IMG/VR virus record: IMGVR_UViG_3300037245_002806
Location: 35,906 to 99,905 of that record
Strand: one strand, 5' to 3'
Source of the DNA: a virus
DNA: 64,000 nt
Part shown: piece after piece, positions 2,968-11,513 of the stretch
How the letters are laid out: the number at the start of each line of letters is the position of its first letter
Numbering within the stretch: the stretch's first letter is position 1
Program-made: the position numbers and the translations under genes
The notes under the pieces: generated by a model
Database searches by the model: none
What the model was told of the DNA's origin: nothing
Seen by the model: the letters and a program-made list of their open reading frames with translations, nothing else

Positions 2968-3137
2968 GAGAATAATGCCCATTATTCGCATTTATTCTCA
3001 TCCTTAATAAGAGTAAATTAACCCCGCCGTACCCCCGTTTTGGCACCCGCCTTGCATGCGGATAGGGCGCCTATATCGGCCAGATGGCAGGATTATTTTA
3101 TGTGTTCCAAATCACCTTTTTAGCCGAATAGTGTTGC

Positions 3138-3511
3138 ATCTTTAAAGGTGGGAAAAACCCATAGTTTTAGATCCTGTGCCACCTCGATCCGGGCTCGCTA
3201 CATGACCCATGCCAGGAGAATTGTAAGGCTTTGCTTTCTACCCCATAAACGGCACCAATTATATGGATGGTCCGCCCACATCAAGCGCCATGCCAACCCG
3301 AATCTACACCTATTATATACCGTGTTTTGGGTGTTTCTAAGTGCGCTTAAAATAAGGGTTTGGTGCGTTAGCGGCGAAATATCGAGATCACCATGCTAGG
3401 AGTCGTTTATATTTATTATCGGCCTTAAACGACCCCTCACGACGTCGAACAAAGCCTTTGTTCTCTAAGGGTTAGCGGGATTGTGGGTGTGGGGTTTTCA
3501 CCTTTAAAGAT
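3138..3511. repeat. 13-bp perfect inverted repeat (ATCTTTAAAGGTG at 3138-3150 and its reverse complement at 3499-3511) in an AT-rich divergent intergenic region
   Basis: Direct reading; both arms extend imperfectly into GAAAA(A)CCC. Confidence 0.7.
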
Positions 3512-3765
3512 TAAACGTAGAGATGCACACCTTATATGGATAGTTTGTGCGATTTGTCACACAACACATAATAAAAATAAATATTCCCGCGCGGAGCTTG
3601 AGGAAATCCTTTTTGGACTATTTTAGATATTTTAACTCTGACCTATCCGGTCGGGTATCCGGCACACCTCGGGCGGGCTCGCAATGATATAGATCACACC
3701 TCCGATGTTTTCCTTGTTTTTCTCAAGAAACCGCCCAATGGGCCGCCCACTAATAGAGGATAGAT

Positions 3766-6654: not shown

Positions 6655-6760
6655 ATAGAAGGGGGGCGAAAGCCCCCACCCCGGCGGACGAGGGGATGCA
6701 CCCCGCTTATTTAGGCTAGCGCCGGGACGGCATAATAAAACCCTGTTAGCTCGAACCCTC

Positions 6761-6786
6761 GGGGCGCGAAAGCGCCCCATCTTTTT
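6761..6786 (+). terminator. intrinsic terminator
   Basis: GGGGCGC-GAAA-GCGCCCC followed by ATCTTTTT. Confidence 0.7.
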
Positions 6787-7348: not shown

Positions 7349-8011
7349 ATGACCAAAGAATGCACCCGCTGTGAAGGAATGCCCGCGATGGAGTGCCCCG
7401 ACGAGCCCGTTTGCAAGCGGTGCGAAGGTACCGGGGAAGAGCCGGCGCCGTGTGGGTACGGGGAAGCCTCGTGCCAGGATGTGCAACTGAGGGATCCTTC
7501 CTACACTTGCCACGACCACCCGGTGCCTGTGCCATGCGAAAAGTGCGGCGGTAACGGGTTGCTTGGCGAAAATGGCGAACGGGTGGAGCGCACCTCCCAT
7601 GCCCCGATGAAAGCCTGCAACCGCTGCTTTGGATCGGGAGTCGAGCCCCCAGAGGATATCCGACGGGCGCCCACGCCGGCTGAGGTGATCGCCGGCGCCC
7701 ACCCCGAGGTTGCCGCCCACGCCGAAAGGGTGGCCAACCCGCCGGCGCCGCCACCGCTTCGACCGTATTCCCCCATGGTGCATAACAACGGCACCGGACG
7801 CCAGGAGCTTGAAAGCCAACTCCGCAACGCCGGCGCCGCGGTACAAAATGCGATGGAAGCACTTCGCGCCGCCTACCCGAACGGGCGAGATTATTACATC
7901 CAAGATACCCTGAAGGCCGCTTGCACCCAATGGGATGCCCGCTTCGAAAAACTGCAAACGGTTTACCGTGAGATCTTCCAGATCTACGAAAACGTCGCCG
8001 ATCAAGAATAG
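7349..8011 (+). CDS. DnaJ-type Zn-finger repeat protein with helical C-terminal domain
   Basis: CTRCEG, CKRCEGTG, CEKCGGNG, CNRCFGSG; SD GAGGT. Confidence 0.75.
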   Translation: MTKECTRCEGMPAMECPDEPVCKRCEGTGEEPAPCGYGEASCQDVQLRDPSYTCHDHPVPVPCEKCGGNGLLGENGERVERTSHAPMKACNRCFGSGVEPPEDIRRAPTPAEVIAGAHPEVAAHAERVANPPAPPPLRPYSPMVHNNGTGRQELESQLRNAGAAVQNAMEALRAAYPNGRDYYIQDTLKAACTQWDARFEKLQTVYREIFQIYENVADQE

Positions 8012-8023
8012 GAGTAGAAACCG

Positions 8024-8242
8024 ATGTGCCAGAAAAGCATAAACGAAAGAGAACGGGAACAGGAAACCGAGCGCCGCAAGGTGGAAGCTCTCGAAAGGAT
8101 TGCCGCCCGGCTGGAACAGCTAAACGGCACCGTCGCCAAAGCCCTTGAACCCCTTCAAAATCTCGGATACATCGACAACGTAGCCGAAAAGATTGCCGGC
8201 GAATTGGTAAATCTTTCCGCCGTGATCCATAAAAGGAAATAG
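8024..8242 (+). CDS. coiled-coil hypothetical protein
   Basis: AGGAG SD; heptad-like composition. Confidence 0.6.
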   Translation: MCQKSINEREREQETERRKVEALERIAARLEQLNGTVAKALEPLQNLGYIDNVAEKIAGELVNLSAVIHKRK

Positions 8243-8246
8243 CCAA

Positions 8247-8492
8247 ATGGATATGTGCAAACTGGACGACCTGAAAGAGTGGGTTCGAGATTGGGCCGTG
8301 CACTACAGTCGAACCCCGGAGAAGTTTTACGCCCGCGTAGCCATGGTTGCCCGTGAACAACGGATCAACATGGAAAACGCCACCTCTGGCGGTAGACACC
8401 CGACGTGGTGCGACCCGAAAGAATACCGGCGATGTGTCGAGCGCCTCGAAGATATCGCCCGCCGGCGCCCACCCCTCAAAACCCTCTGGTAG
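8247..8492 (+). CDS. hypothetical protein
   Basis: AAGGA SD; followed by a GC hairpin plus T-run at about 8501-8526. Confidence 0.6.
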   Translation: MDMCKLDDLKEWVRDWAVHYSRTPEKFYARVAMVAREQRINMENATSGGRHPTWCDPKEYRRCVERLEDIARRRPPLKTLW

Positions 8493-8673
8493 TCAACGGA
8501 GCCCCCCACCCCCAGGGGGGGCTTTTCCCCACCTTGCCCGCGGTGGAATTCATCCCTATCCGGTGAACCCCTTTATCCACACCGCTTAGCCCCGTGGGGC
8601 TCATCCCCCTACGTTTAGTGCGAAATACCCCTTTCTACCCACACCTTTTGCCTTTCTACCAAGCGGCATCACC

Positions 8674-8738
8674 TAAACCCTTGTTTTACCTTGCTTTAAT
8701 TGGATAGATATATGCGCCTTATTGGCACGAAGCGTGCA
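8674..8738 (+). promoter_or_regulatory. sigma54-like promoter with upstream IHF-like site
   Basis: TGGCACGAAGCGTGCA at 8723-8738 (1 mismatch to TGGCACG-N4-TTGCW); TAAACCCTTGTTT at 8674-8686 (1 mismatch to IHF consensus YAANNNNTTGATW). Confidence 0.6.
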
Positions 8739-8750
8739 TATATAAGAGGT

Positions 8751-8888
8751 ATGATGACAAAAACAGCAAAAAGCAACGGGGAAGCAAAAGCGGCCTCGAC
8801 GGTTTTTGCGCCCACCGGGGATAACGCTACCGAGCCCAAAGGGCCGGTGGTAGGTAACCCGGTGGAGCTTTCGGGGGGATCAAAATGA
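8751..8888 (+). CDS. microprotein (45 aa)
   Basis: Starts near the predicted sigma54 +1; ATGA-coupled to next ORF. Confidence 0.45.
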   Translation: MMTKTAKSNGEAKAASTVFAPTGDNATEPKGPVVGNPVELSGGSK

Positions 8889-8992
8889 CTTTCGCAATTA
8901 TCGCCTTTATCGCAATCGGTGTTATCTGGCTTAACTGCGCCTTCCCCGTGACCCCTTTTGGTCGCCTGGTTCTAACCCTTATCGGAAAATAG
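8885..8992 (+). CDS. hydrophobic membrane micropeptide (35 aa), absent from ORF track
   Basis: MTFAIIAFIAIGVIWLNCAFPVTPFGRLVLTLIGK; GGGGGGA SD; ATGA overlap. Confidence 0.5.
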   Translation: MTFAIIAFIAIGVIWLNCAFPVTPFGRLVLTLIGK

Positions 8993-9001
8993 GAGCAAAC
9001 C

Positions 9002-9112
9002 ATGGAAATTCCAGCGTACTACCCTTTCGGCGAGCCCGAGACCGTTCCGGATTTATGCTACAACTGCGATCGCCCGATGGATGACCACCACCCCGATTGC
9101 CCGGACGCCTAA
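9002..9112 (+). CDS. Zn-binding microprotein (36 aa), absent from ORF track
   Basis: AGGAG SD; CYNC...HHPDC. Confidence 0.55.
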   Translation: MEIPAYYPFGEPETVPDLCYNCDRPMDDHHPDCPDA

Positions 9113-9124
9113 ACCCTACCCCTC

Positions 9125-9153
9125 GGGGGGCGAAAGCCCCCCACCTTCCTTTT
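9125..9153 (+). terminator. intrinsic terminator-like hairpin
   Basis: GGGGGGC-GAAA-GCCCCCC then pyrimidine/T tract. Confidence 0.6.
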
Positions 9154-9170
9154 GCCCGATCTGACCCTTC

Positions 9171-9510
9171 CCTCTGCGAACGTCGCCTGATTAGGGGTGT
9201 TCGACTTCGCACACCTGGCCGGCGTTTCGAGGTGCTCCCTCTGCGAGCCGATCCGGTGCCCGCCTCTGCGAGCGATCCGGGGTGGCCCCTCTGCGAGCAA
9301 AAATGGGGTGTTCGACTTCGCACACCTGGCCGACATTTCACGTGGTCCCCTCTGCGAGCGTTTCGAGGTGGTCCCTCTGCGAGCCGATCCGGGGTGTTCG
9401 ACTTCGCACACTATCTACGTCGATCCGGCGGTGCTCCTCTGCGAGCGTTTTAGGGGTGTCCGTCTTCGCACACCTGGCCGGCGTTTTAGGGGTGTTCGAC
9501 TTCGCACACC
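9171..9510. repeat. non-coding two-motif repeat array
   Basis: Motif A GGGGTGTTCGACTTCGCACACC at 9194, 9305, 9391, 9453 (degenerate), 9489; motif B CCTCTGCGAG at 9171 (variant), 9238, 9263, 9288, 9349, 9374, 9436. Confidence 0.9.
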
Positions 9511-9542
9511 TCAACCTACCACATAATAAATGTATTTTATGC

Positions 9543-9577
9543 TTGCCTTATCTACGGGGTTTTGGTACTATATACGT
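9543..9577 (+). promoter_or_regulatory. sigma70-type early promoter (leaderless type, opens 7-aa uORF MEVGENG)
   Basis: TTGCCT-17nt-TACTAT-6nt-ATG (9578). Confidence 0.7.
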
Positions 9578-9593
9578 ATGGAGGTTGGAGAAA

Positions 9594-9770
9594 ATGGTTA
9601 AAGTTTTTCTCTGTTGGTTCGAAAACGGCCAATTCGCCGAGTGTAGGGCGCGAAGTGCCGAATCCGCCAAATCGTTTGTAAACTCCTATTACAAGCGCCC
9701 GGTGGTAAGCGTCGAGTTGACCACCGAATACCCTGCGGCGCTCCATGAGGCGCTCTGGAGTGCGGTTTAG
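9594..9770 (+). CDS. hypothetical protein (58 aa, MVKVFLCWF...)
   Basis: GGAG SD; the upstream extension in the ORF track runs through the repeat array and is likely spurious. Confidence 0.6.
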   Translation: MVKVFLCWFENGQFAECRARSAESAKSFVNSYYKRPVVSVELTTEYPAALHEALWSAV

Positions 9771-10309
9771 TGCGCATCCAATGCTTTTACTGCCAAGGAA
9801 GTGGAACCACCGCCCTCAATGCCTCGGGGATCTGCCACCGGTGCGATGGGATTGGTACCTTGGACGGTGAGCACCCGGTGGCCTACGCCTACCTTTTTGC
9901 GAAGGATTGCCACGCCGGGCAAACGGATGACGACGGAAAGGATTACCTCGAAGCCCACTGCCGCCACGTCTTCGAGATTGTCCGCGCCGCGGCCCCTGAG
10001 GATACCGCGCTCCATGCCGCTGCTTTCCTGCACGATGTGATCGAGGATACCGAGCACGACTATAGCGAGATCCATGCCGAATTCGGCCAGGACGTCGCCG
10101 ATTTGGTGCACGAAGTAACGCATGAGGGCCAGAAGGATTCCAAAGGGTTCTACTTTCCGCGGCTGCGGACCCCCAGAGGGATCCAGCTAAAATTCGCCGA
10201 TAGGCTCTCGAATCTATCCCGTATGGAGCCGTGGAGCGAAAGGCGGGTCAACCACTACTTGCACAACTCTCGTTTCTGGCGTACCGGGAACGAAAAGAGG
10301 TTTCGATAA
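9770..10309 (+). CDS. RelA/SpoT-type HD-domain hydrolase (Mesh1/small alarmone hydrolase-like) with N-terminal Zn finger
   Basis: H.GQ...GKDY..H, AAFLHDVIEDT, FG.DVA.LV.EVT, KFADRLSNL; CFYCQGSG/CHRCDGIG. Confidence 0.85.
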   Translation: MRIQCFYCQGSGTTALNASGICHRCDGIGTLDGEHPVAYAYLFAKDCHAGQTDDDGKDYLEAHCRHVFEIVRAAAPEDTALHAAAFLHDVIEDTEHDYSEIHAEFGQDVADLVHEVTHEGQKDSKGFYFPRLRTPRGIQLKFADRLSNLSRMEPWSERRVNHYLHNSRFWRTGNEKRFR

Positions 10310-11073
10310 TGCCGACACTGACGATTGATCCTAACCTACGCGGTATCCTTGCCAATATGGTCTGGCGAGAAAATGCCGCTAAGATCGTGGCGAAGCTCGA
10401 CCGCCCCACCTACGTAAAGATCAACAAGATTTTAGAGTGCCTCGGGGGAAAATGGGATCGGTCGCTCCAAGCGCACATTTTCGAAGGGGAAGCCCGCGAA
10501 GCGGTGGAGGATGCCGCCGAGACCGGCACATACATTGACTGGAAGCGGCAAAACGAATTCTTTGAAACCCCCGAGCCCCTTGCCTGCCGTATGCTCGACC
10601 TTGCCGACGTCGCCCCCAATTTTACCGTTCTGGAGCCCTCCGCGGGGAAAGGCGCCATCGTAAAGCCGGCACTGCAATTCGGCGCCACGGTGCTCGCTGT
10701 CGAGCAATTCGAGCCCTATGCCAAAGTGATCGCCGGCTTGGCTCCGGACGGTTTCGACAGGCTCAAGGTGGCGGTGCTCGATTTCCTTGCCTTTAAACCT
10801 ACTCCGGTTTTCGATGCCGTGGTAATGAACCCGCCTTTTAAAACCGACGTCTACCACGTCGCCTATGCTGCCCGCTTTCTTCGCCCCGGCGGAAAGCTGG
10901 TCTCGGTGATGGGGCCAGGTTGGACGTTTCGAACCGCGGCGATCTCCGAACGTTTCCGATATTGGGTTACCACCATGGGCGCAAAATGGGAAAAGCTGCC
11001 AGAGAAGTCTTTTTCCTCGTCCGGTACCTATGTCCATTCCGGGTTGCTTACGATGCAAAGGGCCGACCCGTGA
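10309..11073 (+). CDS. SAM-dependent amino-methyltransferase (putative DNA N6-adenine MTase)
   Basis: FFETP, VLEPSAGKG (motif I), VVMNPPF (motif IV); TAATG coupling. Confidence 0.85.
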   Translation: MPTLTIDPNLRGILANMVWRENAAKIVAKLDRPTYVKINKILECLGGKWDRSLQAHIFEGEAREAVEDAAETGTYIDWKRQNEFFETPEPLACRMLDLADVAPNFTVLEPSAGKGAIVKPALQFGATVLAVEQFEPYAKVIAGLAPDGFDRLKVAVLDFLAFKPTPVFDAVVMNPPFKTDVYHVAYAARFLRPGGKLVSVMGPGWTFRTAAISERFRYWVTTMGAKWEKLPEKSFSSSGTYVHSGLLTMQRADP

Positions 11074-11138: not shown

Positions 11139-11513
11139 GTGAAAAACGAAAGCGAGATCAAGTGCTCGAAACATTGTGGCCGCGGCTGCACCCGGAAAGA
11201 ATACGAAACCGCGGAGAAAGGCGCCCTCAAACTCGCCCGCCGGCTTGGCAAAGGGTGGAAACCCGACGTTTGGGAAAATCTCGGCTGGCACTATGCCGCC
11301 CGCCGCGGTGGAGTGCGAGTGCACCCACATCCTACCGGCCCGCCCGGTTTTACCGCTTACCTTAATTACCAAAAGAGCCCCGGTGGTCGGTGGGTTGCCT
11401 CTGCGAGCACCCCCCAGAAGGCCATTACCGAAGCTCTGGCGATTGCGAGAATGGAGCGAGACGAAATCGCCAAGGCCGTTCGAAAAATCGAGCAATATTT
11501 AGAGGAAGATTAA
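11139..11513 (+). CDS. hypothetical protein
   Basis: GTG after GGGAGGA SD (alternative GTG at 11070); CSKHCGRGC. Confidence 0.6.
   Translation: MKNESEIKCSKHCGRGCTRKEYETAEKGALKLARRLGKGWKPDVWENLGWHYAARRGGVRVHPHPTGPPGFTAYLNYQKSPGGRWVASASTPQKAITEALAIARMERDEIAKAVRKIEQYLEED

Follow-up and report, generated by a model that had tools for sequence, protein, structure and literature searches.

Genomic context of the array

A non-coding block of about 350 nt (9163-9510), made of short tandem units, lies in the early region of an uncultivated phage, between a terminator-like hairpin at 9125-9142 (+) and a promoter whose hexamers occupy 9543-9571 (+), where the sequence-only reading of this DNA had already placed it. 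Unless genome coordinates are named, positions refer to the analysed window, a stretch of 64,000 nt that covers 35906-99905 of an IMG/VR virus record; the record is 99,905 bp long and rated complete. The hairpin has seven G-C pairs and a GAAA loop, and it closes an upstream micro-operon of tiny ORFs; the same type, GGGGGGCGAAAGCCCCC, recurs at 6661 and 6761. Written in its general form, GGGG(G/C)GCGAAAGC(C/G)CCC with a GAAA tetraloop, this terminator closes early cassettes at 6661-6677, 6761-6777 and 9125-9142. On the other side of the array, an AT-rich tract (9520-9542, +) sits directly upstream of the -35 hexamer and may act in the manner of an UP element, and the early-family promoter itself, TTGCCT-17-TACTAT-6-ATG, follows at 9543-9580 (+). 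This promoter is one of seven early-region cassettes of the type TTGAC(A)-17-TATATT-6-ATG and has the poorest -35 and -10 hexamers of the seven (TTGCCT and TACTAT vs TTGACA and TATATT); among the cassettes examined, it is the only one with the array upstream. Relative to the promoter +1, the array extends from -68 to -415. The operon downstream begins with a 58-aa ORFan (9594-9770, +), continues with a SpoT-like HD hydrolase (9770-10309, +) and includes a DNA methyltransferase (~10300-11073, +).

The genome is that of a tailed phage, with the portal, TerL, a protease/capsid-like gene and the tail genes on the minus strand, and with primase/helicase, RecT and RecE at genome 23-31 kb; no tRNA or tmRNA genes were found in the window. 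Since the 'direct terminal repeat' given for the record is a 24-bp overlap only, the assembly is circular. The public runs that contain the phage genome are marine-sediment and marine metagenomes, and none of them is an RNA run. By TerL the nearest isolate is Tunturiibacter phage Tunturi_4, at 27% identity, and the closest metagenomic homologues are P0003 (69% identity, 92 kb) and P0006 (56% identity, 98.7 kb). Queries of IMG/VR with the HD protein, a 220-aa protein, the portal, TerL and a TerL alignment returned no close relative (nothing, or matches of 26-29%), and blastn against the GenBank phages gave no match.

Unit structure of the array

Two motifs make up the array. Motif A, GGGGTGTTCGACTTCGCACACC (22 nt), is present five times, starting at 9194, 9305, 9391 (one mismatch), 9453 (two mismatches) and 9489, with start-to-start distances of 111, 86, 62 and 36 nt; motif B, CCTCTGCGAG, is present six times with a period of 25 nt (starts 9238/9263/9288, 9349/9374 and 9436) and once more as a decayed copy, CCTCTGCGAA, at 9171. 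All the motif positions, the distances and the 25-nt period that had been read from the letters are confirmed. The copies described at that stage are real, but a plain array of A and B motifs is not the best description of the locus: 9163-9510 is better parsed as a gap-free head-to-tail chain of 36/37-nt A-units and 25-nt B-units, with no remainder, in the order b0 A1 B1 B2 B3 A2 B4 B5 A3 B6 A4 A5. Most array units open with GGTG or GGGGTG. An A-unit consists of a 22-nt core and a tail, and the usual build of a B-unit is GGTG, 3-4 nt, an 11-nt core, CCTCTGCGAGC, and a linker of 6-7 nt. The linkers fall into few classes (GATCC(G), GTTTCGA, GTTTTA, AAAAAT), which are shuffled among the units as repeated unequal exchange would leave them. 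Motif A is a 20-bp imperfect palindrome, GGTGT-N10-ACACC, symmetric at 16 of its 20 positions, and B is asymmetric.

Read along the plus strand, the chain begins with the decayed B-unit b0 (9163-9193), whose core at 9171-9180 has no GGTG in front. Unit A1 (9194-9229) follows, with its 22-nt core at 9194-9215 and a 14-nt tail, and then B1, B2 and B3 (9230-9304, 25 nt each, cores at 9238, 9263 and 9288). After A2 (9305-9340) come B4 and B5 (9341-9390, cores at 9349 and 9374), then A3 (9391-9427), which is 37 nt long and has the final core base changed from C to T, and B6 (9428-9452, core at 9436). Unit A4 (9453-9488) has two changes, both at palindrome positions that are non-symmetric or central. 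The last core, A5 (9489-9510), adjoins the promoter, its centre lying at about -78.5 from the +1/ATG at 9578.

The B period of 25 nt and a net difference of 209 nt in a related strain (run X2, described below), which is not a multiple of three, mean that the array cannot be coding, in line with its initial description as non-coding. Nor is it an assembly artefact, a concern attached to the initial description, since the longest exact internal repeat (28 nt) is shorter than k=31 and an independent k=31 Logan contig from the probable source run, spanning 8312-10206, reproduces the array exactly, with 0 differences.

The array is the only sizeable non-coding tandem array of the genome, the other repeat-dense spots being coding, and motif A occurs nowhere else in the 99,905 bp, even with 7 mismatches allowed. 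A scan of IMG/VR gave 0 matches to motif A and only single chance matches to the B-unit pattern. The A 19-mer was matched 42 times in 185,579 species genomes, always singly (about 35 matches estimated by chance), and 42 times in the metagenome collection, again as single matches at chance level. The array is specific to this phage lineage. At 11389-11408 (+), 1.9 kb downstream, a single B-like unit (GGTG, 5 nt and the exact 11-nt B core) stands in the gap after a stop codon at 11365; chance could account for it, with an M3 expectation for B-core 9-mers of about 0.6-0.8 genome-wide. The B core also occurs three times in the gene of a 507-aa Cys-rich repeat protein with CLCEP-type repeats (genome 13834-15357, minus strand, L014), outside the window, where it encodes CLCEP and is a codon coincidence, not a set of sites. 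That B might be a dispersed Chi-like motif was rejected on its genome-wide distribution.

Conservation of cores and linkers

When the six B units are aligned, all 11 core columns are invariant and all 14 other columns vary, so that 0/66 cells differ in the core vs 36/84 in the linker; an invariant run of equal length did not arise in any of 100,000 column shuffles. The five A units show the same kind of contrast, with 3 differing cells in the 22 core columns vs 27 in the 14 tail columns. Invariant cores beside variable linkers argue for selection on recognition sites, since uniform neutral decay does not yield this pattern, and the contrast is the strongest internal evidence that the cores may serve as recognition elements.

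The array in related strains

Logan contigs from three other studies align to 8000-11000 at a likeness of at least 80%, and the relatives are described here from these alignments only. The flanks of the related strains differ from the window by about 5-11%. In run X2, a 418-nt contig joins 9144-9248, GATCCGGGTG, 9234-9254 and 9489-9767, which gives b0 A B B A and then the promoter. A 295-nt contig of run X4 joins 9170-9304, 9194-9246 and 9481-9556, that is, b0 A BBB A B A. The 1244-nt contig of run X3 (depth 61) joins 8515-9342, 15 letters of a B unit and 9481-9855, giving A BBB A B A, possibly with a fourth B unit in the first block, as the left piece exceeds the window by a net 26 nt. Runs X3 and X4 may represent one lineage. 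The left edge b0-A is kept in X2 and X4 and the array from A1 onward in all three relatives, as is the right edge, formed by the final A core and the promoter, and it is the number and order of the inner units that vary. Array-wide divergence, with cores and linkers taken together, is about 6-7% in the relatives, much like the 5-11% of the coding flanks.

The initial description had singled out the graded order of the array, in which successive A copies are separated by 3, 2, 1 and 0 copies of B. This order accounts for 2 of the 84 possible interior arrangements, a rarity that is weak evidence for a pattern noticed after the fact. Other A/B arrangements in relatives had been named at the outset as a ground for refutation, and for the graded order this is what the relatives show: A BB A in one case, A BBB A B A in the others. 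The countdown is therefore a snapshot of a fast-changing array and not a conserved design, and we regard it as highly improbable that the graded order is the trace of a polar process or of design and not an accident. In all four haplotypes the B count per A-module never rises toward the promoter (3,2,1,0; 3 (or 4),1 twice; and 2), in what is a tiny sample. Such non-rising counts could come from directional growth or decay of the modules, or from a progressively filled gradient of sites that times promoter firing.

A fast-changing array may also be one without function. On this account the array is a fast-evolving minisatellite in a tolerated intergenic gap, reshaped by slippage and unequal crossing-over, and the order and number of its units are meaningless. 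The differences in unit number and order among close relatives fit it, as do the linker classes shuffled among the units, which is what repeated unequal exchange is expected to leave, and the fact that no binder, RNA family or homologue was found. Neutral decay, however, should hit cores and linkers alike, and the B cores show no differing cell where more than a third of the linker cells differ; moreover, strains with flanks that have diverged by 5-11% still have the locus and its edge units. We therefore consider a functionless minisatellite unlikely, although it deserves to be kept in mind.

Three other stretches of the neighbourhood differ between strains. The tiny-ORF region upstream of the array (8834-8984) is hypervariable, with many substitutions and 1-2-nt indels in a minor variant of run X1 and in X3, and some in X2. 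At 8121-8248, about 115-126 nt of a 72-aa ORF (8024-8242) are replaced by 128-157 unrelated letters in X2 and in the minor X1 variant, which from the alignments looks like a cassette swap between strains; an X3 contig also skips 8121-8248. Where the HD hydrolase gene meets the methyltransferase gene (10290-10308), X2 and X3 carry about 290-297 extra letters, which might represent a small gene inserted there or a different way of joining the two genes.

A possible protein-docking array at an early promoter

The reading that we favour, tentatively and with somewhat less than even confidence, is that the array is a cis-acting protein-binding array controlling the adjacent promoter. We hypothesise that it would act as a docking platform on double-stranded DNA with two kinds of recognition box, an A box whose 20-bp imperfect palindrome suits a dimeric protein, and an asymmetric B box formed by the 11-bp core after GGTG. 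Phage or host proteins bound to these boxes could activate, repress or insulate the promoter at 9543-9571, for instance as a switch to delayed-early expression behind the upstream terminator, and the promoter, the weakest-looking of its early family, would in turn drive the 58-aa ORFan, the SpoT-like HD hydrolase and the DNA methyltransferase. Unequal recombination between units would rapidly change their number and order, so that the 3-2-1-0 order would be incidental. Protein binding to the boxes is what we infer from their form and conservation, and the promoter is the presumed target from its position alone. A protein-binding array had been among the initial suggestions, and the general idea fits the invariant cores, the dyad symmetry of A and the persistence of the locus in relatives, but the more specific options of an origin, a partition site or a packaging site found no support.

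The spacing of the units speaks against docking in one respect, as steps of 25 and 36 bp put successive sites off one helix face. Two further points weigh against it: the relatives differ from the window about as much inside the array as in the coding flanks, with cores and linkers counted together, and the three substitutions among the A copies would suit an RNA hairpin too. Searches with Pfam, PHROGs and PADLOC found no DNA-binding family among about 40 early ORFs, the neighbouring ORFans included, and the genome has no HTH_3 protein. The 58-aa protein encoded downstream was modelled at a pLDDT of 83; the model has no PDB match at E <= 0.001 and no match to a DNA-binding fold, and the best-scoring of the weaker matches are to small phage inhibitor proteins.

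Among known promoters, the rrnB P1 UP element with its Fis sites offers the nearest layout of this kind, having an AT-rich tract at about -40 to -60 and spaced sites upstream, the nearest of them centred at about -70 to -80. The array differs in reaching to -415 and in comprising 11 to 12 putative sites of two kinds. If the boxes are bound, the locus would be a compact, rapidly re-arranging control region of two specificities in a phage lineage without a cultured relative, and it would provide a route to the regulators among the early ORFans of the lineage. The ordered pattern seen in one genome vanished once three related strains were compared, which calls for caution, and it is the sharp difference in conservation between cores and linkers that deserves follow-up.

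Possible roles in replication, partition or packaging

In place of a promoter-control region, the array could be a cis site for the handling of phage DNA: an origin of the iteron type, an enhancer of replication such as P4 crr, a centromere-like site at which the ParB_N protein would bind, or a terminase site. We consider this group of readings improbable. The likeness to iteron origins (ori-lambda, P1 oriR, plasmid oriV, P4 ori/crr) lies in several direct copies of an approximately 20-bp protein-recognition sequence, non-coding and beside an AT-rich tract, with a copy number that varies among relatives, and the phage does encode a primase/helicase. Iteron origins, however, have one kind of unit at about 22 bp (one 17-22-bp repeat at about two helical turns), whereas two kinds are interleaved here, at 25 and 36 bp (periods of 25 and 36/37 nt). 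No initiator gene is adjacent, the neighbours being ORFans, the HD hydrolase and the methyltransferase; the replication genes are 14-22 kb away; there is no DnaA-box cluster, the sole nearby DnaA-box match lying at 8573, about 600 nt upstream; and the AT-rich tract spans only 23 bp and coincides with the UP-like tract of the promoter. GC skew, which had been put forward as a check, tracks the coding strand without any sign of an origin, no step in contig depth is seen from 8000 to 11000, and blastn against the PLSDB plasmids found no similarity to plasmid iterons.

A candidate for the origin lies elsewhere, in a 339-aa gene just upstream of the primase/helicase gene and outside the window (L015 7828-8850, minus strand, equal to genome 25828-26850). 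The gene has a weak match to DUF1376 (E 5e-4, below the family cut-off) and no PHROG or NCBIfam match; in the central linker, 12-nt tandem repeats (L015 8382-8518) precede a very AT-rich stretch of 60 bp (L015 8280-8340). By analogy with ori-lambda inside gene O, these repeats and the AT tract might be a replication origin, if a weak candidate, and its presence lowers the odds that the array is one. The 8-mers common to the array and to the 12-nt repeats of this gene are as many as estimated by chance.

Tandem or two-box centromeres are known, as in F sopC and P1 parS. The resemblance of the array to such sites (F sopC with its 43-bp repeats, R1 parC, P1 parS with A and B boxes) is one of tandem palindrome units, as in sopC, or of two box types, which in P1 parS serve one protein, and centromere-like arrays can overlap or precede a promoter, as here. 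In contrast to these systems, no par operon was seen beside the array, no terminase gene was found near it, and no sequence similarity was found; the only ParB_N gene is about 43 kb distant, in the neighbourhood of the packaging genes, and its product has no recognisable HTH. That protein has 300 aa (genome 1837-2742, minus strand, L014), with a Pro-rich linker and an unassigned C-terminal domain, and its gene adjoins DUF5131 and packaging genes. Four metagenomic relatives share it at 42-92% identity; no domain beyond the N-terminal one can be recognised, and the model, at a pLDDT of 45, is too poor for fold comparison.

A block of non-coding repeats and palindromes in the early region of a large virulent phage also brings to mind the first-step-transfer DNA of T5. 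That DNA contains an untranslated repeat region with the injection stop signal, thought to be cis-acting, which is defined by 8 DnaA boxes and lies in a long terminal repeat (bioRxiv 10.1101/866236). Unlike the T5 region, the array has no DnaA box, and a terminal repeat is not evident in the phage beyond the 24-bp overlap. A phage attP site for a tyrosine integrase was rejected as well, as the complete genome has no match to Phage_integrase.

A possible role as RNA

The array might instead act as RNA, in read-through or antisense transcripts whose five A hairpins would form a protein sponge, a processing signal, or a mimic of a CRISPR repeat or of an antitoxin; we find this quite improbable. 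Motif A on its own forms a hairpin of 6+2 bp at -9.3 kcal/mol (z about -2.2), and the three substitutions found among its copies, at an internal-loop base, at a loop base and from G-C to G-U, all keep this fold. The terminator at 9125-9142 has a poor U-tract, and the 36 nt of the A-unit are the length of a ToxI or CRISPR repeat. A hairpin on both strands (-9.3 and -7.9 kcal/mol) is, however, what any DNA palindrome gives. On neither strand was a promoter-like site found ahead of the array, shuffled sequences fold as well as the whole array does (z +1.45 and -0.85 for the two strands), and the B units are unstructured. A known structured RNA family was accordingly rejected, with no Rfam match and no excess thermodynamic stability.

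The idea of a CRISPR-repeat mimic or other repeat-derived RNA, raised with the initial description, fared no better. The comparison with CRISPR repeats that it called for returned no match to the array in Rfam, including the CRISPR direct-repeat families, at E values up to 10, and the motif was never found twice at one locus in the 185,579 species genomes or in the metagenome collection. A CRISPR mini-array was likewise rejected, as its 'spacers' would be the B repeats, which are not unique. The closest comparison on the RNA side is with the repeats of type III antitoxins (ToxI, 36-nt units) and phage pseudo-ToxI, which share with the array a 36-nt unit, its tandem arrangement and its presence on a phage. 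The array differs from toxI in its two interleaved kinds of unit, in the reverse layout, with a terminator in front and a promoter behind, and in the lack of excess RNA structure; no ToxN-like gene was found next to it (PADLOC), and a ToxI-like antitoxin array was rejected.

Sigma-54-like matches and the divergent control region

Least of all do we credit the idea, which we hold to be very unlikely, that the A boxes are activator sites for a host sigma-54 enhancer-binding protein and serve a promoter at 8723-8738 from downstream: NifA sites have the form TGT-N10-ACA, which motif A shares (a lead only), a GG-N10-GC element, TGGCACGAAGCGTGCA, lies at 8723-8738 (+) before the micro-operon (ATG ~8752), and a perfect TGGCAC-N5-TTGCA, TGGCACCCGCCTTGCA, lies at 3041-3056 (+) in a 900-nt divergent control region, yet consensus matches in the window are barely above chance (36 vs 23.9 +/- 5.5), neither a Sigma54_activat nor an HTH_8 protein is encoded by the phage, the surroundings of the 3041 match contain no A-like site, and the A boxes are 460-770 bp downstream of 8723-8738, beyond its terminator. 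A canonical sigma-54 upstream activating sequence, with sites 80-200 bp upstream of GG-N10-GC, was rejected on the same grounds, the boxes being downstream of the only sigma-54-like match nearby and the phage having no enhancer-binding protein of its own.

A composite element, CACCTCG-N3-7-GCTCGC, occurs three times in the genome, at 3180-3198 and 3665-3682 (+) and at 9354-9370 (-). The opposite-strand copy falls at the B4/B5 junction of the array and may be there by chance. The copies at 3180 and 3665 belong to the divergent control region, with a spacing of about 486 nt that two other repeat pairs there share and that possibly reflects one internal duplication.
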